Virus record (IMG/VR): IMGVR_UViG_3300029288_000057
Span: 160,001 to 224,000 of that record
Strand: one strand, 5' to 3'
Length of the DNA stretch: 64,000 nucleotides
Source: a virus
Lineage: Duplodnaviria; Caudoviricetes
Shown here piece by piece: positions 28,590 to 50,310 of this stretch; within the stretch, counting starts at the first letter, position 1; every line of letters begins with the position of its first letter. The notes under the pieces are model-generated. The model had not been told where the DNA came from and did not search any database. It saw only the letters and a list, made by a program, of their open reading frames with translations. The translations under genes were made by a program, and so were the position numbers.

Positions 28590-28654
28590 TTTTGTTTTTT
28601 ATTATAAATAGTATGAAATTTTCAAACCAGCTATTCCAAAAACTAAAGTCTTAT

Positions 28655-29818: not shown

Positions 29819-29846
29819 ATTTTGTCTTTGTTTCTAATTTTATGAT

Positions 29847-30767: not shown

Positions 30768-30770
30768 ATT

Positions 30771-32356: not shown

Positions 32357-34327
32357 TTATATTGTTTTAATTTTTACTTCTTCTTTGATTTGGTGAAAAA
32401 ACTTGCCCCCCTTTCTTCCATACCAAACAACTTCTCGTGAAAATTCCTTTTTATTGGGAAAAGTCGCATTAGGAATGGTCTCAATAGTTGTTGCCCCCCT
32501 TTCAAGTTCACCAATAATTCCAGCTTTACAGTTTTCAAAAAAATTATGGATATCATAGGATAAAAAAACTGTTTTAGAACTTTGGTTGTCGAACCTTACG
32601 CTTCTTGCTTTTTGATATTTTATTGTGTCGTTTAAAATTTCTCTTTCTTTAAAAATGTTTGAAAATTTTTCTAACAAAAAGTTTTCTATTTCTAAATAAA
32701 AATCATCAATTTTCTCTGATACTCTTAAATACGAAGCCTCTTCGGGAGGCCAAGATATGTTTTCAAATCCTACAACTCTTTGTCCAAAACCATTTCCCAA
32801 CAACACCCCATTTAATAAAATGTCTATTTTTTTTAATTCTTTTCCAATAATGGTTTTTGGATTAGATTCCCCAAATTCTATAACTCCTTTGTAAAAATCC
32901 GAGTATTTAATTTTAAAATGATACTTTAAGACTATTGCTATGACTTGTAAAAGCCCCAACGTATGCATGCTTTGAATTATCCAACTATATTTAAAAGAGC
33001 GGATATAGTCGGACTGTTTCATTGTTTTAGTTCCAACAACAATAGTCTCCTTTTCGACAACATCAGAAGAGGATTTAAAACTAGAGTGGGCTTGAAATAT
33101 GGGAATTTCAACACTTTTTATTTCGAATTCCTTCTGATATTCTTTATCTCCCATTTTTGCATTTGGCATTATTACACAATTATACACTACAATCCCATTG
33201 TGCTGAGAGTTATCTAATAATAAATCTATTCCTCCAACAAATGATTCATATGTTTCTCCTGGAAGAGGCAATATTAACTCTGTGTATGTAATAAGCCCAC
33301 TAGCATTATATTTTTTTTGTAATTCATTGAAAAATTCCATTTTAATATTTATTCTCTGAATGTTTTCGAGAGTCTCATTGTTCAACGACTGCATGCTTAT
33401 TGAAGCGCCCTTGTTCATTCCTGCATTAGCAAAAATTTGAGATAACTCAAAAACCTTATCAGTAGAATTTTTTGTGAAGCAAACCCTAAATTGTTTTGGA
33501 TATCCAAAATTAATTTTGTTCTCTGTCATTTTTATTGCATAATCCCTATCTCTCTTGAATATTCCGAAGTTTGCGTCGGCACCAAAGATAAAATCGACTT
33601 TCTTTTCTGTAAAATAATCTAATTCATCTAACAATCTGTTATTGTCAAATTTTCTAACTTTAGACTCAGTAGCAGAGCCCCAATCACAAAACGTACATTT
33701 AAATGGACACCCACGGTTTGTTTCCCAAGTTATCATCCATGAATATTTTTTATTACACAATAAACTATCAAATGTTCCGCTTAAATATGGAGAAGGAATG
33801 GTGTTTAAATCTGAAATTACATTTCTGTGTGAAGATTTTACAACTACATCGTTCTTTCTGTCATAAAACGTGGTGCCAGGAATTTTTTTAAGATTATCAA
33901 AATCAAGTGGGGAATACTTTTTTAATATTTCACAGAACGTTTCTTCACCTTCTCCGTGAACAATAATGTCAACAAATGGATATAGTTTAAAAAAGTCAAG
34001 GATTTCGCCTGGAACATGAGGTCCTCCCAAAATTATAAGACATTTGGGGTTGTTTTTTTTTACCTCTTCGGCCAACTTGAGGCTCAATAGCCAATTCCAA
34101 TTATAACAGGAGATGCCTAGCACATCGACCTCTCCTATTTGTTTTATTAATTTAGGCAAAGAATCTCTAATAAAAACAAATTCTTTAAAATTGAATTTTT
34201 TCGTTATTCTTTCATCAGTCGAAGCGTATGCTAACAACACACCAATGCTATATGGCAAATAAACTTGAGTGCCGTATTTGTTGTTAAACTGGACTAGTTG
34301 TATGGAATATTTTTTATTTTCATTCAT
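32357..34327 (-). CDS. Cobalamin-binding radical SAM enzyme
   Basis: B12-binding N-terminus (GISCYNWN, LGGPH, GEGE) plus RGCPFKCTFC. Confidence 0.9.
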   Translation of the reverse strand: MNENKKYSIQLVQFNNKYGTQVYLPYSIGVLLAYASTDERITKKFNFKEFVFIRDSLPKLIKQIGEVDVLGISCYNWNWLLSLKLAEEVKKNNPKCLIILGGPHVPGEILDFFKLYPFVDIIVHGEGEETFCEILKKYSPLDFDNLKKIPGTTFYDRKNDVVVKSSHRNVISDLNTIPSPYLSGTFDSLLCNKKYSWMITWETNRGCPFKCTFCDWGSATESKVRKFDNNRLLDELDYFTEKKVDFIFGADANFGIFKRDRDYAIKMTENKINFGYPKQFRVCFTKNSTDKVFELSQIFANAGMNKGASISMQSLNNETLENIQRINIKMEFFNELQKKYNASGLITYTELILPLPGETYESFVGGIDLLLDNSQHNGIVVYNCVIMPNAKMGDKEYQKEFEIKSVEIPIFQAHSSFKSSSDVVEKETIVVGTKTMKQSDYIRSFKYSWIIQSMHTLGLLQVIAIVLKYHFKIKYSDFYKGVIEFGESNPKTIIGKELKKIDILLNGVLLGNGFGQRVVGFENISWPPEEASYLRVSEKIDDFYLEIENFLLEKFSNIFKEREILNDTIKYQKARSVRFDNQSSKTVFLSYDIHNFFENCKAGIIGELERGATTIETIPNATFPNKKEFSREVVWYGRKGGKFFHQIKEEVKIKTI

Positions 34328-35255
34328 TATAATAATTGCATATAAACCAGTCTGTGAAATATTTTAATCCTTCTGAAAAGTTAACCTCTGGAGTCCAACC
34401 TAGCTCGTTTTTTATTTTGTCAACATTTCCACAAGCATAAATAACATCTCCAGCTCTATGATAATTGGTTTTTTTAATAATTGATTTCGAATAAAGCATT
34501 TCTTTTAGCATGACCACAGAATCATATATTTTCATTTCAATACCAGAGCCAACATTATATGTTTTATTATTTGATTTTTCAGAGTTTAATGATAAAATGA
34601 TGGCATCCACCACATTGTTAATATAAATAAAATCTCTTGTGGGAAGACCATCGTCATAAATTTCAATTGTTTCGTTGGATAATAATTTCTTTACAAATAT
34701 ATTAAAAATTCCAGTATATGGATTGTTTATACTTTGCCCATCTCCAAACACATTTTGTAATCTTAATATTGTGTATGGAGACTGATATGACAGCTCAATT
34801 AACTTTTCTTGTACCATTTTGCTTAGTCCATAAACGGATTTTGGATTTAGCGGAGATTCTTCTGACAAATTCTTTCCTTCTCCATAAACTGCTCTGGATG
34901 ATGTTAAAATTAATTTTTTAATTTTAAACTTATTTAACTTTTCAATTAACAATGATGTTCCTATAATGTTGGTGGATGTATGTTTGGTAATTTCAGTCAT
35001 TGATTGGTTGGTTCCAGTTTCTGCAGCTAGATGTACCACATAATCTATGTCATCAGATATTACAAAGTCTAAATCGCTAGGATTTCTAACATCTCCTTTA
35101 AAAACCTCTACTTTTTCACTTAAAGTAGATTTGTTTTTTTCGTGTACTTGTGGCAAAAAGTTATCTATAATTTTAACATCTGAACCCAATTCAATTAATT
35201 TATTTGCCAGTTTAGTTCCAATAAATCCAGCACCACCAGTTATTAAAACTTTCAT
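34320..35255 (-). CDS. NAD-dependent sugar epimerase/dehydratase
   Basis: ITGGAGFIG, HLAAETG, SSRAVYG, YGLSK. Confidence 0.9.
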   Translation of the reverse strand: MKVLITGGAGFIGTKLANKLIELGSDVKIIDNFLPQVHEKNKSTLSEKVEVFKGDVRNPSDLDFVISDDIDYVVHLAAETGTNQSMTEITKHTSTNIIGTSLLIEKLNKFKIKKLILTSSRAVYGEGKNLSEESPLNPKSVYGLSKMVQEKLIELSYQSPYTILRLQNVFGDGQSINNPYTGIFNIFVKKLLSNETIEIYDDGLPTRDFIYINNVVDAIILSLNSEKSNNKTYNVGSGIEMKIYDSVVMLKEMLYSKSIIKKTNYHRAGDVIYACGNVDKIKNELGWTPEVNFSEGLKYFTDWFICNYYNE

Positions 35256-35256
35256 G

Positions 35257-35952
35257 CTATTTTTTTTTAAAAAAAGCTAATTTGTTAGGTCCATATATTG
35301 TTGTTGGTAAGTCAAATAATTCACATGATTCTATAGTGTTTGTCAAATATTCATTTTCTTCTTTGTTTAAAAATTGACTTGTGAATTCTTTTGTTTTGAT
35401 ATAGCTTTCTATGGTGTTTACTGTTGTATTGCTTCTGTCGTCGCTAATGTCTAATGGAAATCCATACAAATCTTTAAATTGACCATATGGCCAAAAGGAT
35501 GTGTGAAGGTCTTCGATAAAATACATTCCACCGCTTTTTAAATGTTTAAACAAAAACCCTAAACTTACTTGTTGTTGCCCCATCATATGACCACCATCAT
35601 CAACTATGATGTCTAACTCACCAGTTTGCTCAACAACCCTTTGTAAATCCGCTCTCTTTTGTTGATTGGCGATATAAGTAGTTACCCTATCATTTTCGTG
35701 ATGCTTGGAATTGGCGATGTCAATTGCGTGTATTTTAGCTTTTGAGAAGTATTCATACCACATTTTTAAAGAAGGTCCAGAACCAATTCCTATTTCAAGA
35801 AAATTTAATTCTTCATTTCTTTTTTCTTCCATATATCTATTATATATTGTGGTAAAAAACAGCCTGGGACCATGATTGCCTTCGCTTGGCATAACAGTTC
35901 CTTTGTCAGATGCATATTTATTAGCCAAATCGCTTAAAACGTCTTCTTTCAT
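35257..35952 (-). CDS. Class I SAM sugar O-methyltransferase (MycE-like)
   Basis: SDKG, LEIGIG, DIIVDDGGH, GGMYFIEDL. Confidence 0.8.
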   Translation of the reverse strand: MKEDVLSDLANKYASDKGTVMPSEGNHGPRLFFTTIYNRYMEEKRNEELNFLEIGIGSGPSLKMWYEYFSKAKIHAIDIANSKHHENDRVTTYIANQQKRADLQRVVEQTGELDIIVDDGGHMMGQQQVSLGFLFKHLKSGGMYFIEDLHTSFWPYGQFKDLYGFPLDISDDRSNTTVNTIESYIKTKEFTSQFLNKEENEYLTNTIESCELFDLPTTIYGPNKLAFFKKK

Positions 35953-36653
35953 AATGTTGTAATTTTTGTTTTAAAATATTCAATTTCTTTTGATTCTTTT
36001 TGTGGATAATTATCTAAAATTTTTGTCACTTGGTTGTTATGCATTCTAATGGTAACAGACACATCATTGAAGAAATGCGGCGTGCCATATTTCTTTTCTA
36101 GCCTATAGTGCATATCTACATCATTAATTATTATTAAGTTCTCATCGAAGAGGTTTTCTTCGTTCACAAAAAAAGAGACGCTAGGACATCCCAAAAGAGC
36201 GGAACAACCAATGAGGGGATTGAAGAAAATGGTGGGCATCATAATTTGTCGAATTGAGTTTTCATATTCATAGTTGTGTTGAAACCCAAAGGCGCCCCAT
36301 TTGATTGTCTTATCATTTGTTATTGCATTGTCTATTTCTTTTAATGCTTCTTCATTACAAAACACATCATCCATGTGCATTATTTTTATCACATCTCCAC
36401 TTGCTCTTTTTATTCCCGCATTCATATTTACAGAACTATTTCCTCGTCCATTTTCGTTAAAAAAATGAACAATAGTTAACTCTTTCTGCCAACAAGAAAC
36501 TACATCTTTTATAATGTCACTAGTAGAATGGTCTGGAATAACCACCTCAATGTCTTTATGGGTTTGTGAAGATATTGATTGTAGCAATTCTGTTATTAAC
36601 TTATCTCCCACCCCACGTGCTTCATACGCTGGTATTACAACTGAGATTTTCAT
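35949..36653 (-). CDS. GT2 glycosyltransferase
   Basis: ISVVIPAY, DHS, NAGIKRASGD, MDD. Confidence 0.85.
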   Translation of the reverse strand: MKISVVIPAYEARGVGDKLITELLQSISSQTHKDIEVVIPDHSTSDIIKDVVSCWQKELTIVHFFNENGRGNSSVNMNAGIKRASGDVIKIMHMDDVFCNEEALKEIDNAITNDKTIKWGAFGFQHNYEYENSIRQIMMPTIFFNPLIGCSALLGCPSVSFFVNEENLFDENLIIINDVDMHYRLEKKYGTPHFFNDVSVTIRMHNNQVTKILDNYPQKESKEIEYFKTKITTL

Positions 36654-37474
36654 TTTTTTCTTAACTTTTGTAATATAGGAATTTCTGAATCATAAACTTT
36701 AATCTCGCCATCTCCAATTAACTTTTCCATAGTTCTTATTCCTTCTATTAGTTCATCAGAGCTTTCAATTGATGCTGCCTGGTCTGACCCATACATACTT
36801 CTATCTGCTGTAATATGAAACTCCACGCACTCAGCTCCAAGTGCAACTGCACCATAACAAGCTATAAGACCATTGTAATGGTTTGAGAATCCTATTTTTT
36901 TGTTGGGGAACATTTTTTTAAGGGTTGTGATGGATTCTAAATTTACCTCTTCATTTTTTGTAGGATATGTGCTTGTACATGCCAAAACATATTCAACGCT
37001 TTCTAAACATTCTATTGCGCCTCTAATTTCTTCTTCTGTACTCATTCCAACTGAAAGAATCACTGGTTTTTTTGTTGCATTAATTTTTGACAGGAAGCTT
37101 TTGTCGGTTAGCATTGCTGAAGCAATTTTGTGATACTTCACGTTTAAATTTTGCTCTATCAGGTCTAAACTGTTTTCATCCCAACATGAAACTATAAAAT
37201 CTAAGGAATAGTTCTTAGCATATTTTTCAAGTTCAGCATATTGTTCGATAGAAAACTCCAATCCTTCTTTTTGTTGTCTTGTGGTGGTTCCCCATGGAGA
37301 CTCCCTAGGTTTATCTAATTCTTCTTTTGAGTAAACTATGTCAATAGTTCTTTTTTGAAACTTCACGGCATTTGCACCGTCCATTTTTGCTTTGTCTATT
37401 AATTCTTTTGCCAAATTAATATCCCCATTGTGATTAATACCAATTTCTGCGATGATGTAGACTTCTTTTTCCAT
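36650..37474 (-). CDS. neuB: Nonulosonic acid synthase (NeuB family, no SAF domain)
   Basis: IAEIGINHNGD, AVKFQKR, KIASA, STYP, GFSNH, EFHIT, GSDQAAS. Confidence 0.92.
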   Translation of the reverse strand: MEKEVYIIAEIGINHNGDINLAKELIDKAKMDGANAVKFQKRTIDIVYSKEELDKPRESPWGTTTRQQKEGLEFSIEQYAELEKYAKNYSLDFIVSCWDENSLDLIEQNLNVKYHKIASAMLTDKSFLSKINATKKPVILSVGMSTEEEIRGAIECLESVEYVLACTSTYPTKNEEVNLESITTLKKMFPNKKIGFSNHYNGLIACYGAVALGAECVEFHITADRSMYGSDQAASIESSDELIEGIRTMEKLIGDGEIKVYDSEIPILQKLRKK

Positions 37475-37493
37475 TTTTATTAAGTTTTTAGCT

Positions 37494-37524
37494 TAAATAT
37501 AAAAAAAAAAAGACAGTTAATCAA
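37494..37524 (-). promoter_or_regulatory. Host-RNAP-type promoter TTG-N20-TATATTTA
   Basis: Upstream of neuB, same geometry as the 26634 promoter. Confidence 0.5.
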
Positions 37525-37541
37525 TTATTTTTTAATTTTTT

Positions 37542-38327
37542 TTAACTTCCAGTTGGTACACCCCAAAATTCACACATTGAACAGAGTGGTACGTTGTCAC
37601 GTAATCCTTCTACATGCAACTTTTTCCACGCTAATCTCTTTTCGCCATTCCATATTTCACTCAATGTTTGCTGTTTAATATTCCCGATAACACCTAATTT
37701 ATTTGGGTCAAATCTAACACAAATGGAAACGTCTCCGTTAACATCGATAGCAATATGATTAAGAAAATCTAAACATATACCAACCTCTGGGATTGTTGGG
37801 GTCTTTTTTTGGTAATCAAAACTGCCCATTGGGGCATGTAATATCCTAGTTATAATTTGAGTATTTAACGCTTTGTATTTTGTTCCATCAACTTCTCCGA
37901 TTAACCTCAATGTTACAAACGGCTTATGACTTCCTTTGAGTTTTAAAAAATTAGTTATAATGTCATATTGTTCGTCTGATTCAACATCATCCTGAAATAT
38001 TGAAATTGACATTGTATCTAATTTATCTATTATTTCATCTGTCTTTCCCAACAACAACTTACCATTTGTAACTATATTTGTTATTTGTTTGTTAAACAAT
38101 TTAACAGCATCACCAAAGCGGCTGTACATTAATGGTTCTCCGTTATTGTGCAACTGTACTACAATTCCTTCTGGAACCTGTTTTGCGATATTCTCAAGCA
38201 AAGAAAATTCTATTTCTTGATTGTAGTTCGTCCCATTGTCTTTTTCTGTTTTTCTTCGGCCACACATCCAACATTTTTTATTACATTTGTTGGTAAGCTC
38301 AACATTTAATGTTGTTAATCCGTTCAT
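37542..38327 (-). CDS. Radical SAM / SPASM-twitch enzyme
   Basis: CNKKCWMC, GEPL, TNG; C-terminal C..(NGDVSIC)..GNI..CSMC. Confidence 0.88.
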   Translation of the reverse strand: MNGLTTLNVELTNKCNKKCWMCGRRKTEKDNGTNYNQEIEFSLLENIAKQVPEGIVVQLHNNGEPLMYSRFGDAVKLFNKQITNIVTNGKLLLGKTDEIIDKLDTMSISIFQDDVESDEQYDIITNFLKLKGSHKPFVTLRLIGEVDGTKYKALNTQIITRILHAPMGSFDYQKKTPTIPEVGICLDFLNHIAIDVNGDVSICVRFDPNKLGVIGNIKQQTLSEIWNGEKRLAWKKLHVEGLRDNVPLCSMCEFWGVPTGS

Positions 38328-38335
38328 TGTAAAAT

Positions 38336-39313
38336 TTATTTTTTGAAAGAATATGGAGTTGAAGCTCCATCTTCTAATTTACACTCTTCGTTAAACATTT
38401 TAATTTGTTTAATTAAATCAACCCCAACTTTATCTCCCCAGATGGTTATTAATTTTTTTGTATAATGTCCCATTGGTTTTTTGCCAATTTTAATCCCATT
38501 TAAAGAGCTGACTGGTAAAATTGAAAAAGGGGTGCCAGTCATGAATGCCTCATCAGCAGTATAAACATCATAAGGAGTGATGTTTTTTTCAATACATGTA
38601 ATTTTATGTTCTTTACAAATAGAAAAAATATAATCACGACTTATTCCACGCAACACATTTCTTCCTTCTGGCGTTATTACTGTATCATTTTTAACAATAA
38701 AAAAATTATCTCCAGTTCCTTCGGCAATGAAGCCATTTGTGTCAAGCAATAGAGCCCAATTGTTATCTCCTTTAACCTCTGAAACCTCGATGTTCGCCAT
38801 TTGATAGTGAAGTCTGCTCCTGTTCTTAATCTTGGGGTCTAACAATTCTGATGGAATTGCCCTTTGTGATGGTATGACTGCGTTAATCCCCTTATCATAT
38901 AGTTCTCCCATGCCCACAACAGTCCATTTGAGCGGGAAATCAGCAATAACAATTGTTGTTCCTACATGACCGTCAAATACTCGATGATATATTCCCAATG
39001 GTCCCCTGCTGACATTTATCATCAACCTGTGCTCATCAGTATTGGTGAACAAATGCTCATTCTTTTCAATTGTTTTATAACAGGCCTGCTCCATCTCTTT
39101 TAATGTCATTGTCATTGGTATTCTGAGAATCTTAATTCCATTGTACAAACGTTCTAAATGCTCGCATAACATAAATTGCTTTTTATTAAATGAACGAGTC
39201 ATCTCAAACACCATATCTCCAAACATAAGAGCCGAGTCAAATATTGAAATCTTTGCCTCATCCTCTGGTACATAAACCCCATTTATGTACACCACCCTTT
39301 TGTTTTTATTCAT
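38336..39313 (-). CDS. PLP class IV aminotransferase (IlvE/D-amino acid aminotransferase fold)
   Basis: FGDMVFE, KIKNRSRL, EGTGDNFF, LRGISR, ADEAFMTGT. Confidence 0.9.
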   Translation of the reverse strand: MNKNKRVVYINGVYVPEDEAKISIFDSALMFGDMVFEMTRSFNKKQFMLCEHLERLYNGIKILRIPMTMTLKEMEQACYKTIEKNEHLFTNTDEHRLMINVSRGPLGIYHRVFDGHVGTTIVIADFPLKWTVVGMGELYDKGINAVIPSQRAIPSELLDPKIKNRSRLHYQMANIEVSEVKGDNNWALLLDTNGFIAEGTGDNFFIVKNDTVITPEGRNVLRGISRDYIFSICKEHKITCIEKNITPYDVYTADEAFMTGTPFSILPVSSLNGIKIGKKPMGHYTKKLITIWGDKVGVDLIKQIKMFNEECKLEDGASTPYSFKK

Positions 39314-39929
39314 TTTTAAATCCTTTTATTAAAACTGTTGGACTTGTAATTTTTTCTTTTTCTCTTAAAACAAGAAATGTGTCAATTTGAAAATATGAAG
39401 AAAATTTGTTATATAAACCATTTTCGTCACCTATAATGTCTTTTCCATAAAATTTTTGTGTAATATCGGGAAACGGTAAAGCCACCAAAAATTCGCCATT
39501 CGTTTTTAACAATTTTTTTATTTTTAAAAACACCGCATCAATATTATCAACAATGTACCATAAAGTGCCAGACAAAACAATTAAATCATATTTCACGGTA
39601 AGTGGAAATGATTCTGATAAAATATCATGGGAAAAAAAATTAATGTTTGGATATAGAAGCTTTGCCTTTTCAATGGCAGTTTGGCTAATATCACAAGCAT
39701 CTAGTAATTCACAATGGTGGTTAATTATATTTGAAATATTTCCCAATCCGCACCCCAAATCTAAAACTCTTTCATATTTTTTTTCTGACAGGACTTCATT
39801 CATAATCCTTATTTCTAATGTGTGGTGTCTCTTAGATTGTTTCCATGGGTCTTCGCAATCGATATACATGTTGTCAAAATCGCCAACCAATTTGCCATCT
39901 TTAAAAACGTAATCATGATAATCTTTCAT
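39306..39929 (-). CDS. Class I SAM methyltransferase (NodS-like)
   Basis: DPW, VLDLGCGLG, CDISQTAI, YDLIVLSGTLWY. Confidence 0.85.
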   Translation of the reverse strand: MKDYHDYVFKDGKLVGDFDNMYIDCEDPWKQSKRHHTLEIRIMNEVLSEKKYERVLDLGCGLGNISNIINHHCELLDACDISQTAIEKAKLLYPNINFFSHDILSESFPLTVKYDLIVLSGTLWYIVDNIDAVFLKIKKLLKTNGEFLVALPFPDITQKFYGKDIIGDENGLYNKFSSYFQIDTFLVLREKEKITSPTVLIKGFKNE

Positions 39930-39930
39930 A

Positions 39931-40596
39931 TTATAATTTTTTTAAATAAAATTCACATATTTCAATATCACCTTTTTTGTCTATTTCATAAGATTTCCAA
40001 AAATCCATTATGTATATCCCAATTTTCCCACCTAACCTATTGTTGTTTTCGGACAAAACAGATGGTTTAAAAACATAAATTGACCCATTTTCAAGGTATT
40101 GCGGCTTTTTTACTTGCCGCCTTTCTCTGTTTTTGTAATCAAAATTTACTGATATAAGCCCAAATCCATTTTCTTCCCAGATACAATAATCTTCCAACCT
40201 GGCCGCAGAAAATAATGAATCATAATTATTATTAACCAACATAGTTATTGCATGATTAATATCCTCAACACATCTAAGCGGAGACGTCGGTTGAAGGAAT
40301 ACTACTAAATCAACTTCTCCTATGATGTCTAGGGCGTGTTCTAATGCATCTTCTGAAGTAGAAGTGTCTAATGCCAACTCATCTGGCCTTTTAATTGGCT
40401 TTGCTCCATATTTGGTTGCAATATTGAGAATTTCATCAGAATCGGATGAAACATAAGTCTCGGAAACCAAATTAGAGCCAATAGATTGTTCAATTGACCA
40501 TACGATAAGCGGCTTGCCACCAACATCTATTATGTTTTTGTTTGGAATTCCTTTAGACCCACCTCTTGCCAATATGATTGATACTATTTTTTTCAT
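39931..40596 (-). CDS. neuA: CMP-nonulosonate synthetase (cytidylyltransferase)
   Basis: ILARGGSKGIPNKNI, RPDELA, LQPTSPLR, ENGSIY, EID. Confidence 0.93.
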   Translation of the reverse strand: MKKIVSIILARGGSKGIPNKNIIDVGGKPLIVWSIEQSIGSNLVSETYVSSDSDEILNIATKYGAKPIKRPDELALDTSTSEDALEHALDIIGEVDLVVFLQPTSPLRCVEDINHAITMLVNNNYDSLFSAARLEDYCIWEENGFGLISVNFDYKNRERRQVKKPQYLENGSIYVFKPSVLSENNNRLGGKIGIYIMDFWKSYEIDKKGDIEICEFYLKKL

Positions 40597-40612
40597 TATG
40601 TTTAAATAATCA

Positions 40613-40643
40613 TAAAGATAGTGAAATTTATTTAATTTTCAAA
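40613..40643 (-). promoter_or_regulatory. Host-RNAP-type promoter TTTG-N19-TATCTTTA
   Basis: Upstream of neuA. Confidence 0.5.
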
Positions 40644-41381
40644 TTATAAATCTTTATATTCAAAAATTTTCCAATGGGAATCTTTATTTAAATTATAAAT
40701 CTTTATGCCTTTTTTCTTTGCTGAATCGGCAATGATTTGCATGTCATTTAATATGCTTTCGCCATAAGTTTCGAAGTGAGTTAAATCGGGAACCTGTGTT
40801 CCACTTATGTTTTTTGCATATCCAAGTCGATAATTAAAGTCTAATCCAACAATGTATATTTCAGAAAATCCCATTAAAACCGAAAACGCCACCATGTGCA
40901 ATGCAACGGTGCTGGCTGGACTATAATGTTTATCAAACCCAGTGTAATTCTGCAGTTGTTCTTGTATTGTTAATCGTTTAGGGTTAAAATATCTTTCACA
41001 ACCAGCGGAACCGTAACAATTAACGCAATTTTTCCCACCAAAATGTCTCTGGTCATATGGCAAAAAATCGGCCTCTATTTTTCCTTCCAGCCAATCTTGG
41101 CTTGTTAAATCAACTGTATCTGCATAAATTAAAGTTATTTTGTGTTGATTTACAACATCTATTTTGCTTGTGCAATTTTCAATTGTATTGGCAAGAACCC
41201 AATAGTCTGGAGGACAATCTGGATAATAGTCATTCCACGAGTTGCAAGAGATAATTGTGTAATTATCGTTTTTAAAGCCTTTTAATTTATCGATGTATGG
41301 ATTTAAACTGGGACCTTGTGCGGCCACAATACACTTTCCCCCTTTATGTTTGTCTATGATATCTTCTATTGTTAACTTCAT
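40644..41381 (-). CDS. Maf/DUF115 (GT42-like fold) candidate nonulosonate transferase
   Basis: KHKGGKCIVAAQGPSL, ISCN, PDYWV, TVA..LMGFSEIYIVGLDF, KIYNL. Confidence 0.7.
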   Translation of the reverse strand: MKLTIEDIIDKHKGGKCIVAAQGPSLNPYIDKLKGFKNDNYTIISCNSWNDYYPDCPPDYWVLANTIENCTSKIDVVNQHKITLIYADTVDLTSQDWLEGKIEADFLPYDQRHFGGKNCVNCYGSAGCERYFNPKRLTIQEQLQNYTGFDKHYSPASTVALHMVAFSVLMGFSEIYIVGLDFNYRLGYAKNISGTQVPDLTHFETYGESILNDMQIIADSAKKKGIKIYNLNKDSHWKIFEYKDL

Positions 41382-42844
41382 GCTTTTTTTATTTTTCTTG
41401 CTTTGTCATAATTAGTTGGATTTTTTCTTCTATTATATAAAACAAAAAATGGGTTTGTTATGTCTTTACGTAAAATTCTACTAAATAACTTATTTGGATG
41501 TTTTAAAAGATAAAAAATATAGTTTCTAAAAGTTTTATCAGTTGTTTCTTTTAATATTTCTGAAAGCCTTTCGTCGGTAAAGTCAGTAAAGTTAATCCTA
41601 AATCGATATGGTCCAGTTCCGTCTCCAATTGATTCTAAATATTCTTCTTCATTTTTTATTAATCCACTCTCTAAACAAAAATCATATAATTGACTTCCTG
41701 GGTAAGGGGTAATGTATCTGAACTTAAGTGCTGGATAACCAATTTTTTTAAACAAATCTATGGTTTCTTTAATTGTATTTTCATTTTCGCCTGGATATCC
41801 TAAAATTAAACCCATATCAAACGGAAATCCTATTTTAATTGTATATGATAAGATTTTTTCAATTTGTTTTGGAGTTATCTTTTTATTCATGTTTTTCAAT
41901 ATGGTTTCACTGCCACTTTCAACTCCATAGGCAATTTCTAAACACTTGTTATCTTTAGCTTTTTTAATTATTTCTTCACTTACCGTATTGATTCTTGCAT
42001 TTCCATACCATGTAATTTCTAAGTCTTTTATTTTTTCACAGAATTCAAATATATATTTTTTGTTCGAAAAAAGAAGCTCATCTTGAAATCCATATACGTC
42101 TATTCCATATTTTTCCAATAAAAATTTAATTTCTTTAACAAGATGGTCTACGCTTCTTTTTCTAACTTTGGTAAATATTTTTGAACAAAAATTACAATTA
42201 TATGGACATCCTCTCCCAGCCTCTATTTGAATTTTTTTGTGTACTACACCCTTTTTCATGTATTTCTTGGATATATAAACATCGTCAAGTTTTATGTATT
42301 GTTCCATATCAAATAATTCGTATGCTGGAAAGGGAATGGTATCTAAGTCTAAAATTGGGGGGCGTGGTGTGGTAATAAAAACTTGTGATTTATCTTTATA
42401 CGCTATCCCGTTTACTATACTTGGATTGTCAATGTTTTTTAACAAATCTACTATTGTTATTTCTCCTTCACCAATAACACAAATGTCAACATTGGTTTTT
42501 TCTAAAACCAGTTTATAACTGTGGTCGGATAGGTGACCTCCTAGAATTATTTTACAACTCAAAAATGTTTTAAGATATTCTGATATTTTTTTAACTTGAA
42601 CATATGAATAGCTGAGAGCGGTAAGTCCTATAATATCTGGTTTTAATTTTATAATTCTATCTTTTAGCTCGGTATAGTCAACGTCCTCAATTGTTAAATC
42701 TATAACAGAAACATTATAATTGTTTTGTTTTAAAACTGAAGCTATATAGCCAATGCCCAAAGGAAACGTTATATAAGTATCTTTTTTGTCTCCAGTGCTG
42801 TTTGGCCTAATAAGCAACACGTTTTTTATATTATTCTTAACCAT
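41378..42844 (-). CDS. Cobalamin-dependent radical SAM methyltransferase (class B)
   Basis: PLGIGYIAS, LGGH, GEGE, RGCPYNCNFC, GVESG, LGYPGE, TPYPGS. Confidence 0.9.
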   Translation of the reverse strand: MVKNNIKNVLLIRPNSTGDKKDTYITFPLGIGYIASVLKQNNYNVSVIDLTIEDVDYTELKDRIIKLKPDIIGLTALSYSYVQVKKISEYLKTFLSCKIILGGHLSDHSYKLVLEKTNVDICVIGEGEITIVDLLKNIDNPSIVNGIAYKDKSQVFITTPRPPILDLDTIPFPAYELFDMEQYIKLDDVYISKKYMKKGVVHKKIQIEAGRGCPYNCNFCSKIFTKVRKRSVDHLVKEIKFLLEKYGIDVYGFQDELLFSNKKYIFEFCEKIKDLEITWYGNARINTVSEEIIKKAKDNKCLEIAYGVESGSETILKNMNKKITPKQIEKILSYTIKIGFPFDMGLILGYPGENENTIKETIDLFKKIGYPALKFRYITPYPGSQLYDFCLESGLIKNEEEYLESIGDGTGPYRFRINFTDFTDERLSEILKETTDKTFRNYIFYLLKHPNKLFSRILRKDITNPFFVLYNRRKNPTNYDKARKIKKA

Positions 42845-43373
42845 CTTTTTTGTAATGTTTTTCAATAAATTCTTCTAATTCTGGAGAATTTAAGAGTTCT
42901 TGGTTTTCTATTATTTTATCTATAGGCCAATCCCACCATTTTATTTCTAAAAGCTTTTTGATTGAATTTTCGTCAAATCTTTTTGCTACAAGTTCTGCTG
43001 GATTTCCACGAACAACAGAATATGGGCGAACAGTTTTTGTGACATGTGAATTTGCTGCTATTATTGCTCCATCACCAACCTTAATTCCACTCATTATGGT
43101 TACCCCCTGTCCAATCCATACGTCATTTCCTATAATTACATTTCCTCTTGTTGTTCCTTTTTCTATTGTTTTCTTTTTAAAGGTGTGTTCACACACATGA
43201 CCAAATGGATAAGTAGAAATGTTATTTAAATCATGTAGCCCATTTCCAAAGAAAACAATTACATCTCGCCCTATACCACAAAACTTGCCTATATGCAATT
43301 CGACATCTTGATGGAAATCTGCAAAAACCTCTGTTATGTTTTGATGTCCGTATGTAAATTTTCCTACTTTCAT
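42837..43373 (-). CDS. Hexapeptide-repeat O-acetyltransferase (CatB/Vat-like)
   Basis: IGKFCGI, STYPF, IGNDVWIG, GNPA, EIKWWDW. Confidence 0.88.
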   Translation of the reverse strand: MKVGKFTYGHQNITEVFADFHQDVELHIGKFCGIGRDVIVFFGNGLHDLNNISTYPFGHVCEHTFKKKTIEKGTTRGNVIIGNDVWIGQGVTIMSGIKVGDGAIIAANSHVTKTVRPYSVVRGNPAELVAKRFDENSIKKLLEIKWWDWPIDKIIENQELLNSPELEEFIEKHYKKDG

Positions 43374-45040
43374 TTTACCAACTCTTGTATTTTATTTTTT
43401 AAGAATTCTTTGTAGTCCCAAAACCTTTTACTTTTTTCAAAATTTTCCTCAACAAAAGCCTTTTTTTCATTATAAGTGTTTTCTGTTAAACTATTACACA
43501 CATTTATTATTTCTTCCAAACTATTAACAATATACATTCCTTCTGTATTAAAATATTCTCCAATGCCAGTGCACCCATAGTATATTGGAATTGTTTTTGT
43601 TTTAAAACAATCAATAAGTTTTTCAGTGAAATAATATTTATTTCTCATGTTTTCTATTGCTATGTGAAATTGACTATCAAATAAAGCATTTTTTTCATCT
43701 CCCAATGTTTTCGTATCTTCTAAGTTTAATACATCTCCAGAATAGTTACCACTTACAAAAAAACTTTTGGGGATTTCTATTTGGCCTTGTTTTTCCCACA
43801 GTTCCTGTCTCATCACATGTGCGCTCGTTATCTTCTTACCGCCAACTATGGTAGAAACTTGAAATTTCTTTTCAGGATAAATGTATGGGGTTTTTATCCA
43901 CGTTGTTCCGTATTCAAAAAGGTGAGCATTGTTGCATTTTTCTAAAACAGTTTCATCAAAAGTAAGTATATAATCAAAAGATTGATGGTTTTCAATAGCT
44001 TTTTCAATAACATTTGGTATTATTGCAGATGATTCTATGATTAGCAGAATTTTTACAGCATCTTCACTTCTATTGTCAAACCCATTCATATCCACAAATA
44101 ACTCTATTTGTTTTTCGTGTGTAAATTGAAAGTCAAAGGCAAATGGACAAAAAACTCTAATGTCTTTCATTATTTGACTTTTTATTTTTTCATAATCGTT
44201 TTTGTCATATTCTATTTCAACATCCTTGTTATAGAACAACTTCATATATAACGCAAATCTACCTTTTGCCCAATCTACATATGTGGCAGGAACACTTCCT
44301 TGTCCGTTTTTATAAAAATTCATTCCAGACCCTACTCCAGCAAAATGTATTATGTTATCTCCAAAATCCATTATCTTGTTTAGTTCGCCGTACTTATTAA
44401 GAAAACTTGCATCTTCATTTGGAGAACCGAATTTTTCATAATCTAAATGATATATTTTCCCACCATTTTTTAAAATATCAAATGATATTGGGTCAAAAAA
44501 ATCAATACAGGGAAATCCAATCGGATTGTAATATCCAACAACCATTCTGTGAATAGTGTCAAAATCAAAAGGTGATACCTTTTGGTTGTTATATCCAAAA
44601 AAATATGTACCAACAACATCAGAAATGCTGTCATATTCTCCATTTTTATTAGCCACATTCTTTTTGTATAATCTTCGAGGACCTATTAAGTCAAACCCTT
44701 CGTCAAATTTGTTTAATATATAGCTTAAGCATTCTGAACGAAATATGGTATCGCTGTCAAAATGTATTATTTGATTATAATCTCCATATTCCCCCTTTAA
44801 AACTTTTGTGAAAATATATGCCGTCCCCAGGTGCCCTTGGTTTTTATACATATTTAAAAGCACATCATCACCAGAAAAATCTATATATTCTATGTTTTTA
44901 AATTTACCAAGCTCTTTAAAGTCTTTATGTGTTCCAGCCACGTGAACAATTGTGTCTGGATGATATTTAAAAAAGCTTTCGAGACACTTTTTTCCAATAA
45001 GACCACAATTGTATATTTCTGTATAAATGATAGTTTTCAT
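43370..45040 (-). CDS. Two-domain glycosyltransferase (GT-A with DSD motif fused to GT10-like)
   Basis: N-half HFDSDT..IHFAG; C-half QFHIAIEN..FTEKLIDCF..TIPIYYG. Confidence 0.75.
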   Translation of the reverse strand: MKTIIYTEIYNCGLIGKKCLESFFKYHPDTIVHVAGTHKDFKELGKFKNIEYIDFSGDDVLLNMYKNQGHLGTAYIFTKVLKGEYGDYNQIIHFDSDTIFRSECLSYILNKFDEGFDLIGPRRLYKKNVANKNGEYDSISDVVGTYFFGYNNQKVSPFDFDTIHRMVVGYYNPIGFPCIDFFDPISFDILKNGGKIYHLDYEKFGSPNEDASFLNKYGELNKIMDFGDNIIHFAGVGSGMNFYKNGQGSVPATYVDWAKGRFALYMKLFYNKDVEIEYDKNDYEKIKSQIMKDIRVFCPFAFDFQFTHEKQIELFVDMNGFDNRSEDAVKILLIIESSAIIPNVIEKAIENHQSFDYILTFDETVLEKCNNAHLFEYGTTWIKTPYIYPEKKFQVSTIVGGKKITSAHVMRQELWEKQGQIEIPKSFFVSGNYSGDVLNLEDTKTLGDEKNALFDSQFHIAIENMRNKYYFTEKLIDCFKTKTIPIYYGCTGIGEYFNTEGMYIVNSLEEIINVCNSLTENTYNEKKAFVEENFEKSKRFWDYKEFLKNKIQELVK

Positions 45041-45043
45041 TCG

Positions 45044-45721
45044 CTATTTTTTTAAATACTTCTTTATTGTTTCTGTTATATAATCTTCACCCTCATTTCT
45101 ACTGGCAATTGCTAAAAACTCGTTGTTATCTATCTTATAATCACATCCTCCAGGAACAATTGTTTTATCTACCTCAATGTTTAAAACAGATTCAATTTTT
45201 TTGACAAATTCCAATACACTCATTTTATTGTTAAAACACACATTCATTATTTTATTTGTCTGTGCATCATTTTCTATGATGTTGGGTAGAATATTTGTTA
45301 AATCATCTACATCCATGATATAGCGCACTGCACTTTTTTGAATTTGTATGATGCCTTTTTTTGTTATTTTATTCACAAAATAATTAAATGACGTGTTTTG
45401 ATTATCCGTTTCTCCAATTATATTTGGAAGTCTGAAAATTAAATAATTTTTAAAATTGTTTTTAATGTACTCTTCTGTTTTAATTTTATGCTTTACATAT
45501 TCTGAATTTACCAGAGTTTTGTCAAATATACTACATGTACTAAAATAAACCAATTTTTTATCAAATTCTTTTTCATAAAGCTGCAGCAATTTCAACTCTT
45601 TTCCAAATTGATTTTTGTCTGTTTCTTTTGAGTTTGACACTCCTGATGCAAAAAGTATTATATCTATATAATTCTTATATTTTCCGAATGCCTTCGCTAT
45701 CATCCCACTTCCTACTACCAT
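45044..45721 (-). CDS. Short NAD-dependent epimerase/reductase
   Basis: VVGSGMIA, FASGVSNS, YFSTCS, YVKHK, RLPNIIG. Confidence 0.8.
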   Translation of the reverse strand: MVVGSGMIAKAFGKYKNYIDIILFASGVSNSKETDKNQFGKELKLLQLYEKEFDKKLVYFSTCSIFDKTLVNSEYVKHKIKTEEYIKNNFKNYLIFRLPNIIGETDNQNTSFNYFVNKITKKGIIQIQKSAVRYIMDVDDLTNILPNIIENDAQTNKIMNVCFNNKMSVLEFVKKIESVLNIEVDKTIVPGGCDYKIDNNEFLAIASRNEGEDYITETIKKYLKK

Positions 45722-45723
45722 GA

Positions 45724-46467
45724 TTAATATAATTTTTCTATTCTTTGATACTTTTGTTTTGCTCTCACAACTACTTCGACTTCTCTTTGTCTTGGAGCAT
45801 TCGTGTTTCCATCACTATTTTGGTTGGCAACATTATAAACATATAATATTTCTGGAATATATCTTGACCTTTCTGCAGACATTTCAAGCATGGGAAATTG
45901 AAAACTTAGGTCTCCAGCAGTATCCAACCAACGCCCATCATCAAATTTAAAATCCTTTTCATTTATTAACAAAAAAAGCTCTCTTCGATATGTTCTTAGG
46001 TGAGAACCAAGCCATTGATGCTCTCTGAATGCATTTTTTGATATTACACTGTCTGGATATGCATGATAAATATGAGACACGCTTCTATATGGAAATTCAC
46101 AATATGTGCCATATGTCATATATACATCCCCAGAATTATATACATCATTAAGTTTGCTAAGAATCTTGCCGCCATTTAAATAATCATCCCCATCTAGGCT
46201 AACGCAAATTGTATTCGGCTTTGAAAGCTGTGTTAACCACAACATATTGGCTATTTGTGGCAAACGGACTTCATTTTGATAAACGCTTAAAATAGGATAT
46301 TCCTCAGAATATTTTTTAGCAATCTCAAATGTCTTATCCGTTGATTTTGCATCAACAAGAATTACTTCATAATTTTTATATTTTTGAGTTACTGCTGTGA
46401 TTAAACACTGTTCAATCCACTCTTCTTGATTGCATGCGTCTATAATTATAGTAAAATGATTTTCCAT
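45724..46467 (-). CDS. GT2 glycosyltransferase
   Basis: DAKSTD, LDGDDYL, SHLRTY, FPMLEM. Confidence 0.85.
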   Translation of the reverse strand: MENHFTIIIDACNQEEWIEQCLITAVTQKYKNYEVILVDAKSTDKTFEIAKKYSEEYPILSVYQNEVRLPQIANMLWLTQLSKPNTICVSLDGDDYLNGGKILSKLNDVYNSGDVYMTYGTYCEFPYRSVSHIYHAYPDSVISKNAFREHQWLGSHLRTYRRELFLLINEKDFKFDDGRWLDTAGDLSFQFPMLEMSAERSRYIPEILYVYNVANQNSDGNTNAPRQREVEVVVRAKQKYQRIEKLY

Positions 46468-46472
46468 GTTTA

Positions 46473-48123: not shown

Positions 48124-48125
48124 AA

Positions 48126-50280: not shown

Positions 50281-50310
50281 AAAAAACGCTATAGTAATAT
50301 AGCGTTTTTT
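50281..50310. terminator. Bidirectional terminator overlapping the HNH stop codon
   Basis: AAAAAACGCTATA-GTAA-TATAGCGTTTTTT perfect inverted repeat. Confidence 0.85.

Follow-up and report, generated by a model that had tools for sequence, protein, structure and literature searches.

The operon described here shares parts with several known systems. In the Neu5Ac, legionaminic acid and pseudaminic acid pathways (NeuC/NeuB/NeuA; LegB/C/H/G/I/F; PseB/C/H/G/I/F), a NeuB-family synthase and a NeuA-family cytidylyltransferase are followed by a GT42/Maf-like transferase, and the amino group is introduced by a DegT enzyme on a nucleotide hexose. The Kdn route of Bacteroides thetaiotaomicron (Kdn-9-P synthase, Kdn-9-P phosphatase and CMP-Kdn synthetase) and the Kdo route (KdsD-KdsA-KdsC-KdsB) are built on a skeleton of isomerase, PEP-condensing synthase, HAD phosphatase and CMP-transferase. 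In Shewanella, the oxidase KdnB and the aminotransferase KdnA act on Kdo to give Kdo8N, which is a precedent for oxidising and then transaminating a finished ulosonic acid; these enzymes differ in family from those found here, KdnB being a metal-dependent alcohol oxidase and KdnA an aminotransferase outside class IV. In the butirosin pathway to 2-deoxystreptamine, BtrN, a small twitch radical SAM (rSAM) enzyme with one four-cysteine auxiliary cluster, is paired with the aminotransferase BtrS, and neomycin producers have the NAD-dependent NeoA as the counterpart of BtrN. BtrN and SpeY are dehydrogenases whose ketone product is prepared for a transaminase.

We analysed a window of 64,000 nucleotides (positions 160,001 to 224,000 of the IMG/VR virus record IMGVR_UViG_3300029288_000057), which belongs to a phage genome of 290,886 bp rated 91% complete in IMG/VR and carrying baseplate wedge, LAGLIDADG and HNH homing endonuclease and PhoH genes. 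Eight ORFs that overlap or abut, with intergenic gaps of -29 to +67 nt, occupy 36650-43373 on the minus strand. A sequence-only reading had placed a contiguous set of neuB, rSAM, class IV aminotransferase, methyltransferase, neuA, Maf/GT42-like, B12 rSAM and O-acetyltransferase genes between exactly these outer ends, and Pfam searches verified the gene order and the families, the last gene being a Hexapep acyltransferase. The features are as follows.

36650..37474, minus strand: NeuB-family ulosonic acid synthase without a SAF domain, 274 aa (Pfam NeuB, E 3e-62)
37542..38327, minus strand: BtrN-like twitch rSAM enzyme, 261 aa (Pfam Radical_SAM and SPASM)
38336..39313, minus strand: class IV (fold-type IV) PLP aminotransferase, AT4 (Pfam Aminotran_4, E 1e-46)
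39306..39929, minus strand: NodS-like SAM-dependent methyltransferase (Pfam NodS, E 1e-12, and generic methyltransferase domains)
39931..40596, minus strand: NeuA-type CMP-ulosonic acid synthetase (Pfam CTP_transf_3, E 1e-24)
40644..41381, minus strand: small GT42/Maf-like CMP-sugar transferase, 245 aa (Pfam MptE-like, weak CST-I match)
41378..42865, minus strand: class B (B12-binding) rSAM enzyme, 495 aa (Pfam B12-binding and Radical_SAM)
42837..43373, minus strand: hexapeptide-repeat (XAT-type) acyltransferase (Pfam Hexapep)
26671..48926, minus strand: surrounding phage glycan island with GMD, DegT, Fcl-like, GT10, GT11, five GT2, a second B12 rSAM and methyltransferases (Pfam, NCBIfam)
26671-27699, same strand block as the operon, downstream: true GDP-mannose 4,6-dehydratase (537 bits, cut-off 415)
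28655-29818, same strand block, downstream: DegT aminotransferase (below the PseC, LegC and LegB cut-offs)
29847-30767 and 34320-35255, same strand block, downstream: two extended SDRs (below the same three cut-offs)

All operon proteins miss the NCBIfam equivalog cut-offs. The window NeuB, the only NeuB copy in the genome, scores 228 bits against the NeuB_NnaB model (cut-off 400) and 167 bits against PseI (cut-off 340); unlike the synthases of the sialic acid-type, Kdn and Kdo routes it has no SAF domain, and its PDB matches are PseI 8h2c and NmNeuB 1xuu. The closest PDB match of the window NeuA is mouse CMP-Neu5Ac synthetase (1qwj, E 1.6e-31), followed by the Vibrio and Neisseria enzymes, which makes it like CMP-sialate synthetases, and it scores 106 bits against PseF (cut-off 206). 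The 245-aa transferase matches Pfam MptE-like at 44.7 bits (cut-off 34.6), and Foldseek searches with its AF2 model (pLDDT 82.4) place Cst-II and Cst-I first (E 4e-7 to 3e-5, TM ~0.5) and Maf 5mu5 at rank 15; homologues lie upstream of NeuA in eight viral loci. As the sequence-only reading had stated for the window, there is no neuC: the NeuC profile PF02350 has no match across the whole 290,886-bp genome, and the control search was positive in 11 of 14 genomes. Its statement that PseB/PseC and LegB/LegC pairs are lacking holds in that the curated PseC, LegC and LegB cut-offs are all missed, but has to be qualified by the DegT, dehydratase and extended SDR genes listed above. Unlike the Kdn and Kdo routes, the phage copy has neither an isomerase nor a phosphatase for the pathway, and the cassette goes beyond both routes in encoding an oxidoreductase, an aminotransferase and a methyltransferase.

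AT4 has the fold of the branched-chain aminotransferases (BCATs; IlvE, archaeal 5mqz and 5cm0) and keeps their catalytic Lys, PLP-binding Glu and the equivalent of Arg59, but scores under every NCBIfam BCAT, DAAT and ADCL cut-off. Relative to E. coli IlvE, it carries Y31F, T33D, G38M, Y95E, I96H, Y164R, P218R, A258P and A259F, while the catalytic Lys163 and the PLP-binding Glu198 and Arg55 are retained. Y31F, G38M, Y95E, I96H, Y164R, A258P and A259F are invariant differences at contacts to the substrate and to PLP-O3'; the BCAT carboxylate contacts are invariantly replaced, and Arg165 and Arg167 are newly present. Across 101 sequences of the clade, conservation reaches 98% or more at 85 of the 325 positions. 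By sequence, AT4 is a distinct clade with a rebuilt, invariant active site.

Relatives that are 54-79% identical to AT4 come from 18 viral contigs and, among bacteria and archaea, from at least 302 species; Leptospira perolatii and Daejeonella are cultured carriers. Neither this spread nor the phage origin of the window had been recognised in the sequence-only reading. Unlike BCATs, the relatives lie in ulosonic acid cassettes: the neighbourhood search for NeuA/NeuB with a class IV aminotransferase and an rSAM enzyme was positive, and NeuB and NeuA accompany the clade nearly everywhere, with NeuB within 8 kb of AT4 in 61 of the 64 loci with flanks of 5 kb or more on both sides and NeuA directly upstream of AT4 in most loci. 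NeuA and AT4 are moreover fused in at least two independent lineages, once as a single 545-aa ORF (L006/L007) and once in the unrelated P0121, in which the NeuA part is 29% identical to the window NeuA and the AT4 part has the full signature; in P0122, an SDR is fused to an AT4-like domain. The NeuA-AT4 fusions suggest that amination is adjacent to CMP activation. In an Omnitrophota locus (L102), flanking housekeeping genes enclose the same six-gene core as in the window, methyltransferase-NeuB-NeuA-AT4-rSAM-B12 rSAM, with the B12 rSAM gene directly after that of the twitch rSAM.

The twitch rSAM enzyme matches Pfam SPASM and scores 29.1 bits against Radical_SAM, narrowly below the 29.5-bit cut-off. 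Its best PDB sequence match is BtrN (E 5.5e-11), and seven cysteines (CX3CX2C at 15/19/22, and 185/203/249/252) are invariant in 16 orthologues in a BtrN-like 3+4 pattern. Foldseek searches with its AF2 model (pLDDT 84.8) also put BtrN first (4m7t, E 1.3e-11), followed by BlsE, SpeY and DesII, all of which, like BtrN, act on sugars or cyclitols. The likeness to BtrN/BtrS covers a small twitch rSAM enzyme with one four-cysteine auxiliary cluster adjoining an aminotransferase; the differences are an identity to BtrN of only ~20%, a substrate presumed to be an ulosonic acid or its precursor rather than an aminocyclitol, and a partner of fold-type IV rather than fold-type I.

The neighbour of AT4 is either a BtrN-like twitch rSAM (21 loci and the window) or a TIM barrel with one or more SDRs (64 loci), and both occur together in only one locus. 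This parallels BtrN and NeoA, with an NAD(P)-type SDR in the place of the rSAM, except that here the TIM barrel, and in many cases another SDR, is part of the swap. The cassette form changes at least nine times on the NeuB tree, at least five of the changes being forced by starred branches, and at least nine times on the AT4 tree, with at least three forced; the window NeuB lies inside a starred (99) viral clade of eight members, of which the other seven are of the TIM/SDR type. With alternative oxidoreductases beside AT4 and such repeated changes, the swap looks, from the trees and gene contents, like non-orthologous displacement of one function. However, SIS and HAD genes occur in 38/64 and 18/64 loci of the TIM/SDR form and in 1/22 each of the rSAM form, so one form may not simply stand in for the other, and dehydrogenation may not be all that the rSAM does. 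In bacterial cassettes of the TIM type, the best NCBIfam match of the HAD protein is the KDN-9-P phosphatase model, a further likeness to the Kdn route, and a GmhA-like isomerase leads to manno-configured aldose phosphates; with this isomerase, the backbone could be heptose-derived rather than Kdn.

The remaining genes would tailor the product. The best NCBIfam match of the methyltransferase is NodS, under the cut-off, and its homologues end directly at the start of AT4, on the upstream side, in 16 loci drawn from the two cassette types; we propose that it N-methylates the new amine. The B12 rSAM (CX3CX2C at 220-227) reaches no NCBIfam equivalog, lies within 8 kb in 8/22 rSAM-type cassettes versus 2/64 TIM-type ones, and is an accessory, possibly a C-methylase. 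The hexapeptide acyltransferase is Vat/CatB-like (155 bits, below the NCBIfam cut-off) and a rare accessory, L013 and L039 being the only loci with a homologue close to the cassette.

Taken together, the operon is probably the rSAM version of an uncharacterised cassette that makes a CMP-activated, sialic-acid-like, amino-bearing ulosonic acid. We favour, with moderate confidence, oxidation, transamination and N-methylation of a Kdn-like ulosonic acid. The SAF-less NeuB would join PEP to a common manno-type sugar, either an aldose or an aldose phosphate, giving a Kdn-like 3-deoxy-2-ulosonic acid; the twitch rSAM, as an oxygen-independent enzyme, would use SAM to take a carbinol hydrogen and leave a keto group, a role based on its similarity to BtrN in sequence and structure and on the SDR dehydrogenases in its place elsewhere; AT4 would convert the ketone to an amine, in place of the DegT step on a nucleotide hexose; the NodS-like enzyme would methylate the amine; NeuA would form the CMP-sugar, and the GT42/Maf-like enzyme would transfer it to an acceptor. 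The order given here from oxidation to CMP activation is provisional, and the B12 rSAM and the acyltransferase would add optional decorations. Points against this reading are the missed equivalog cut-offs, the lack of a phage isomerase and phosphatase, the uneven SIS and HAD contents of the two forms, the closeness of BlsE and DesII in structure, the possible heptose-derived backbone, and the want of a precedent for a class IV enzyme aminating a sugar. The logic of oxidation, transamination and N-methylation, put forward by the sequence-only reading, is well supported by comparative genomics, namely the NeuB/NeuA linkage and fusions of AT4, its oxidoreductase neighbour, the BtrN match, the position of the methyltransferase next to AT4 and the L102 core. 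The parallel drawn there with gentamicin GenD2/GenS2/GenN/GenD1 stands as analogy, not homology.

Amination might instead precede condensation, the rSAM or the SDRs oxidising an aldose or aldose phosphate, AT4 aminating it as in kanosamine, NeuB then adding PEP and NeuA activating the product. The resemblance of the TIM barrel to ketose-phosphate 3-epimerases, the phosphosugar chemistry indicated by SIS and HAD, and the two invariant AT4 arginines beside the catalytic lysine, which could bind phosphate, are in keeping with this order. So is the loss of the SAF domain, which would suit an unusual aldose; in NmNeuB this domain touches the substrate (PMC8208679). Against this, AT4 adjoins or is fused to NeuA, which acts last in the cytoplasm, and not to NeuB or an isomerase, and the NeuB sequences of both cassette forms are intermixed on the tree; neither point is decisive, and we regard this order as unlikely. 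We give still less weight to the rSAM being an eliminating enzyme (AprD4-, DesII- or viperin-like) that turns a vicinal diol or terminal phosphate ester directly into a deoxy-keto intermediate and so does the work of phosphatase, SDR and TIM barrel at once, AT4 then giving an amino-dideoxy ulosonic acid. It would account for the joint lack of HAD (1/22) and of TIM and SDR (2/22) in the rSAM form, where the other form has the set; among the nearest folds are BlsE and DesII, both of which catalyse eliminations and not oxidations, and TIM barrels of the xylose-isomerase type count keto-sugar dehydratases and beta-eliminases among their members. Nevertheless, BtrN is clearly the best match in sequence and structure, the twitch dehydrogenase SpeY also ranks high, and the absence of SIS from the rSAM form is left unexplained by this model.

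We know of no class IV aminotransferase that acts on a sugar, and a literature search found no precedent for one aminating a sugar; the characterised class IV enzymes known to us all have amino acids, keto acids, amines or aminodeoxychorismate as substrates. AT4 might therefore supply an N-acyl substituent of the ulosonic acid by making an amino acid, D-configured or otherwise unusual, or a keto acid; or it might be a plain branched-chain aminotransferase that serves as an auxiliary metabolic gene. Archaeal BCATs are indeed its nearest solved structures (E 2e-51), and amino-acyl-decorated nonulosonic acids exist. However, the cassette has no conserved ligase, of the ATP-grasp or any other type, and the conserved partner of AT4 is an oxidoreductase; Tyr95 and the Ala258 amide, which contact the alpha-carboxylate in BCATs, have invariantly given way to Glu and Pro; the BCAT and DAAT equivalog cut-offs are all missed; and AT4 is linked to NeuB and occurs fused to NeuA and to an SDR. 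An AT4 with no sugar role is hence highly improbable, and an ordinary branched-chain enzyme very unlikely on comparative genomics.

Within the phage, none of 30 proteins taken from 19545-48926, every island gene included, has a strongly hydrophobic 19-aa segment, so that no Wzx- or Wzy-like protein is seen among them. With the proteins of this phage glycan island all soluble, the acceptor of the sugar is probably a protein, or else a host glycan that is assembled in the cytoplasm. A literature search found no paper describing the cassette. These results point to an uncharacterised cassette that is widespread, occurring in phage and in more than 300 bacterial and archaeal species.

The sequence-only reading had placed a nonulosonic acid cassette at 36650-43373, and these limits coincide exactly with ORF boundaries; the eight genes are tightly packed, abutting or overlapping at spacings from -29 to +67 nt. 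In order, they are:

36650-37474, minus strand: NeuB
37542-38327, minus strand: twitch radical SAM enzyme (rSAM)
38336-39313, minus strand: class IV (fold-type IV) PLP aminotransferase (AT4, a name also used for its clade)
39306-39929, minus strand: NodS-like methyltransferase
next, minus strand: NeuA, followed by a 245-aa GT42/Maf-like transferase
41378-42865, minus strand: B12 radical SAM enzyme (B12 rSAM)
last, minus strand: hexapeptide acyltransferase

None of these eight proteins reached an NCBIfam equivalog cut-off. The source is a single contig of 290,886 bp with about 32% GC, of which the window covers positions 160001-224000. It is an IMG/VR virus record with a completeness rating of 91%, and is marked as a large tailed phage by baseplate-wedge homologues, a phrog_1745 protein, LAGLIDADG/NUMOD3 and HNH/NUMOD4 homing endonucleases and PhoH. 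A DNA search of GenBank phages gave one weak match, to neuB only (65.6% identity).

NeuB has a clear TIM-barrel domain (PF03102, 210.6 bits in Pfam against a cut-off of 22.1, and 210.7 bits in the genome search). The synthases NmNeuB, PseI and LegI carry a C-terminal SAF (antifreeze-like) domain, which is absent here, as the protein ends at residue 274 and NeuB is its sole Pfam match. Such SAF-less NeuBs form an environmental clade without assigned function in a phylogenetic study (PMC8208679). The protein also lies below the curated cut-offs for the Neu5Ac/Leg synthase (TIGR03569, 228 vs 399.65 bits) and the Pse synthase (TIGR03586, 167 vs 340.25). NeuB is single-copy in the genome, and the reported lack of neuC in the window extends to the whole genome.

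AT4 is a protein of 325 aa that matches Aminotran_4 (PF01063, 159.9 bits in Pfam) only, with no match to PF01041, the fold-type I family of DegT/DnrJ/EryC1 sugar aminotransferases. Its closest solved structures are archaeal BCATs (E 2e-51), and it falls below every NCBIfam cut-off for BCAT, DAAT and ADCL (TIGR01122, 196 vs 245.55). In an alignment of 101 clade members with E. coli IlvE, 85 of the 325 positions were at least 98% conserved. The clade keeps the catalytic Lys163, Glu198, the equivalent of Arg59 (Arg55) and Arg97, and Lys163, Glu198 and Arg55 are invariant. The BCAT site is not kept: IlvE Tyr31, Thr33 and Gly38 become Phe, Asp and Met, Tyr95-Ile96 becomes Glu-His (Tyr95 being AT4 Glu94), Tyr164 becomes Arg (Arg167) and an additional Arg stands two residues before it, Pro218 becomes Arg, and Ala258-Ala259 becomes Pro-Phe. 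Glu94, the Gly-Thr-Pro-Phe motif and Arg167 are invariant or almost invariant, each present in no fewer than 100 of the 101 sequences. In BCAT the alpha-carboxylate is bound by Tyr95 and the amide of Ala258, with the IlvE Gly-Thr-Ala loop forming part of this site and Tyr164 sitting on PLP O3'. Glu and Pro at the positions of Tyr95 and Ala258 speak against an ordinary site for amino acids on this face, and by its sequence signature AT4 is a distinct subfamily, with a substrate of its own.

Relatives of AT4 are widespread. They were found in 18 viral contigs (54-68% identity), in metagenomes (up to 79%, the best 120 all at 69% or more) and in at least 302 species of the GTDB genome set (63-73% across the 80 loci fetched). 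Bacterial carriers include Omnitrophota, Elusimicrobia, Planctomycetes, Bacteroidota, Pseudomonadota, Chloroflexota and Pelagibacteraceae, with a Campylobacterales MAG as the best cellular match (73%); archaeal carriers include Nitrosopumilus, Nitrosotalea and Nanoarchaeota; and cultured carriers include Leptospira perolatii, Leptospira jelokensis and Daejeonella sp. H1SJ63. When reference proteins were mapped onto all 99 AT4 loci, NeuB lay within 8 kb of AT4 in 61 of the 64 loci with at least 5 kb on both sides, and NeuA was usually directly upstream of AT4. In two viral contigs, L006 (3796-5433) and L007, NeuA and AT4 are a single ORF of 545 aa with both Pfam domains. A second, independent fusion is the protein P0121 (578 aa), whose NeuA part is only 29% identical to that of the window and whose AT4 part has the full clade signature; the NeuA-AT4 fusion is present in two independent lineages. 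In another protein, P0122 (575 aa), an SDR is fused to a more distant AT4-like domain that shares the FEM and K-x-R-S-R motifs. The core of the window recurs in the Omnitrophota locus L102 as methyltransferase-NeuB-NeuA-AT4-rSAM-B12 rSAM, directly preceded by housekeeping genes and followed by flippase and teichoic-acid-type transferase genes. Since AT4 is tied to neu genes in other genomes, the original idea that it serves nonulosonate synthesis survives.

The 261-aa rSAM matches Pfam Radical_SAM at 29.1 bits (just under the cut-off of 29.5) and SPASM. Its top PDB sequence match is BtrN (phmmer, E 5.5e-11), over the core and the C-terminal cluster domain. Across 16 orthologues gathered through AT4-anchored loci, exactly seven Cys are invariant: the CX3CX2C motif (Cys15, Cys19 and Cys22) and residues 185, 203, 249 and 252, which align with the C-terminal Cys of BtrN. 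A full SPASM domain has seven to eight Cys. The motif with only four further invariant Cys points to one auxiliary cluster, and thus to a BtrN-like twitch and not a full SPASM domain. The AlphaFold model (pLDDT 84.8) also has BtrN at Foldseek rank 1 (E 1.3e-11, TM 0.64-0.72), and the top 16 matches continue with BlsE, SpeY (a twitch dehydrogenase) and DesII, with radical SAM enzymes that modify peptides scattered among them. The ketone made by BtrN, and by SpeY, is then used by a transaminase, while BlsE and DesII are eliminating enzymes. A pattern search found no viral relatives of the rSAM protein.

Elsewhere, the place of rSAM beside AT4 is often taken by a TIM barrel and SDR. The partner genes at the 99 loci were distributed as follows:

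TIM barrel and SDR(s) only: 64 loci (SDR in 63), with SIS in 38, HAD in 18 and B12 rSAM in 2
Twitch rSAM only: 21 loci, the window included
Any twitch rSAM (adding L025, a locus with both sets): 22 loci, with SIS in 1, HAD in 1 and B12 rSAM in 8
Neither partner set detected: 13 loci, mostly short contigs

Homologues of the cassette TIM, SDR, SIS and HAD proteins were absent from the window's own genome of 290,886 bp. The NeuB tree puts the window together with seven viral NeuBs in a starred clade (99), and each of the seven comes from a cassette of the TIM/SDR type. The label for cassette form has to change at least nine times on this tree (at least five forced by starred branches) and nine times on the AT4 tree (at least three forced). 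These changes on both trees indicate that, within one orthologous framework, each partner set has repeatedly been exchanged for the other, as would be expected of two solutions to the same step. Judged by record names, the rSAM form occurs chiefly in lineages that are anaerobic (Omnitrophota, Elusimicrobia, Scalindua, Clostridia and a sulfate-reducer symbiont), whereas the SDR/TIM form is mostly in aerobes (Flavobacteriia, Nitrosopumilus, Pelagibacteraceae and Leptospira). This split mirrors that between BtrN and NeoA, its NAD-dependent counterpart in aminoglycoside producers. The window has three radical SAM genes (37542-38327, 41378-42865 and 32357-34327), which, together with the mostly anaerobic distribution of the rSAM form, suggests that the phage host may live at low oxygen.

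The methyltransferase has its best match in NodS, an N-methylating enzyme that acts on a free sugar amine, and homologues of the methyltransferase stop exactly at the AT4 start in 16 loci of both forms. NeuA matches CTP_transf_3 (87.5 bits), is closest among solved structures to the CMP-sialate synthetases 1qwj (E 1.6e-31), 6ifd and 1eyr, and falls short of the PseF equivalog cut-off (106 vs 206). A prediction of the NeuA-AT4 complex from paired alignments scored 0.00, which gives no verdict either way. The 245-aa transferase is MptE-like (44.7 bits against a cut-off of 34.6), with Pfam CST-I at 16.5, under its cut-off of 25. Foldseek with its model (pLDDT 82.4) placed Cst-II and Cst-I first (Cst-II, E 3.7e-7) and the Maf structure 5mu5 at rank 15 (E 3.6e-5); at 245 aa it has the size of Cst-II and lacks the full Maf architecture of about 600 aa with flanking domains. 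Its homologues sit before NeuA in eight phage loci. The B12 rSAM (495 aa) has an N-terminal B12-binding domain (PF02310, 62.9 bits) and a radical SAM domain (PF04055, 73.9 bits) with its CX3CX2C motif at Cys220, Cys224 and Cys227; it reaches no NCBIfam equivalog, and the best models (ApyD, BchE, HpnJ and P-methylases) are all far under cut-off. The hexapeptide enzyme is XAT-like (Pfam Hexapep) and is seldom linked to the cassette elsewhere.

The gene content, linkage, fusions, partner swap and active-site signature are observed directly in these loci. The best-supported scheme has six steps, in which the short NeuB would condense PEP, rSAM would carry out a radical oxidation, AT4 would transaminate the product, the methyltransferase would N-methylate it, NeuA would activate it with CMP and the Cst-II/Maf-like enzyme would transfer it; the B12-dependent and acyl decorations would be optional. 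A two-electron oxidation of a secondary alcohol to a ketone is predicted for rSAM, and the B12 rSAM may methylate a sugar carbon, as GenK, GenD1 or Fom3 type enzymes do; which substrates are used, at which positions and in what order is inferred. Kdn is the favoured backbone, because the HAD of bacterial relatives is most like Kdn-9-P phosphatase and their isomerase is GmhA-like, the latter pointing to manno-configured products; the chain may instead be heptose-derived.

Other roles for AT4 and rSAM were weighed against this scheme. The reading of AT4 as an ordinary BCAT was rejected on the active-site substitutions, the context and the fusions. Amination at C2 of the keto acid was rejected because NeuA needs the C2 anomeric hydroxyl and the conserved oxidoreductase would be needless, and a PMP-dependent dehydratase like ColD is unlikely since AT4 keeps the catalytic lysine. 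The main unexplained point of the six-step scheme is that SIS and HAD accompany the SDR form (38/64 and 18/64) and not the rSAM form (1/22 each). This is the motive for an alternative in which rSAM is a radical eliminase, a role made possible by the closeness of BlsE and DesII to the modelled fold. In its complete form, which we consider improbable, the AT4 clade would be the first fold-type IV sugar aminotransferase, acting on a keto-ulosonate or its CMP form; the twitch rSAM would convert an ulosonate phosphate or diol to the deoxy-keto compound in one step, taking over from the phosphatase, the SDR and the TIM barrel that the aerobic version uses; and hundreds of microbial lineages, as well as phages, would display an amino-dideoxy ulosonic acid (N-methyl, possibly C-methyl) not known before.

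The cassette is part of a minus-strand glycan island of about 26.7 to 48.9 kb. The absence of PseB/PseC or LegB/LegC pairs noted from the sequence holds at the level of cut-offs, since no protein of the GDP-mannose 4,6-dehydratase, DegT and Fcl-like block (below) reaches them, but sugar-nucleotide genes do lie downstream of the cassette in the same strand block:

downstream, minus strand: true GDP-mannose 4,6-dehydratase (GMD; 537 bits against a cut-off of 415)
downstream, minus strand: Fcl-like reductase
28655-29818, minus strand: DegT aminotransferase, a gene separate from AT4
downstream, minus strand: further extended SDR
downstream, minus strand: GT10 and GT11 fucosyltransferase-like genes

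Related phage contigs also keep GMD, DegT and the Fcl-like gene as a block next to the cassette. The simplest role of this block is to supply GDP-fucose or GDP-perosamine, and it may contribute to the precursor of the ulosonic acid. Between GMD and DegT lies a free-standing LAGLIDADG/NUMOD3 homing endonuclease gene (27696-28589, minus strand), which looks like a recent insertion, since the two genes are directly adjacent in related phage contigs (e.g. L006 and L011). The radical SAM gene at 32357-34327 (minus strand) encodes a second, larger B12 enzyme of 656 aa, similar to KedN5-family C-methyltransferases (283 bits, below the cut-off of 700); its flanks, an extended SDR and a weak methyltransferase, suggest a separate C-methylated deoxy-sugar branch within the island. 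Two GT10-like proteins with the fucosyltransferase C-terminal motif are encoded at 43370-45040 and 31559-32356 (both minus strand), one with an N-terminal extension of about 400 aa that has no family match. A 225-aa ORF (45044-45721, minus strand) matches the profile for NAD-dependent epimerases/dehydratases over its C-terminal two thirds only (positions 85-240). The Rossmann region that binds the nucleotide at the N-terminus is apparently missing, and the ORF may be a truncated or degenerate SDR. Just past the island, an HNH/NUMOD4 homing endonuclease adjoins PhoH (50289-50699 and 50906-51667, both minus strand). The 30 proteins extracted from 19545-48926, all island genes included, contain no strongly hydrophobic (predicted membrane-spanning) segment and no flippase or polymerase. 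With no membrane segment among them, the target is probably soluble (a virion or host protein), or a host flippase and polymerase are used.

In the literature covered, mostly outside subscription journals and so weak evidence of absence, there was no paper that places a class IV aminotransferase, a BtrN-like enzyme or this cassette in the synthesis of ulosonic acids. Sialic-acid-like sugars shape the recognition of microbes by hosts, phages and immune systems, and to our knowledge their nitrogen is always installed by DegT-type enzymes on nucleotide hexoses. With the pathway, a Cst-II/Maf-like transferase and glycosyltransferases that are all soluble, the phage might either decorate its own virion or rewrite the surface of its host. 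The repeated exchange of the oxygen-tolerant (SDR and TIM barrel) and oxygen-independent (rSAM) versions is a natural experiment that defines the function of each part, and the sugar could be isolated directly from the cultured Leptospira and Daejeonella carriers. In at least 302 species of many bacterial and archaeal phyla, a different enzyme family, that of AT4, is coupled to the synthase and to the enzyme for CMP activation, a sign of an entire family of surface sugars whose chemistry has yet to be described.
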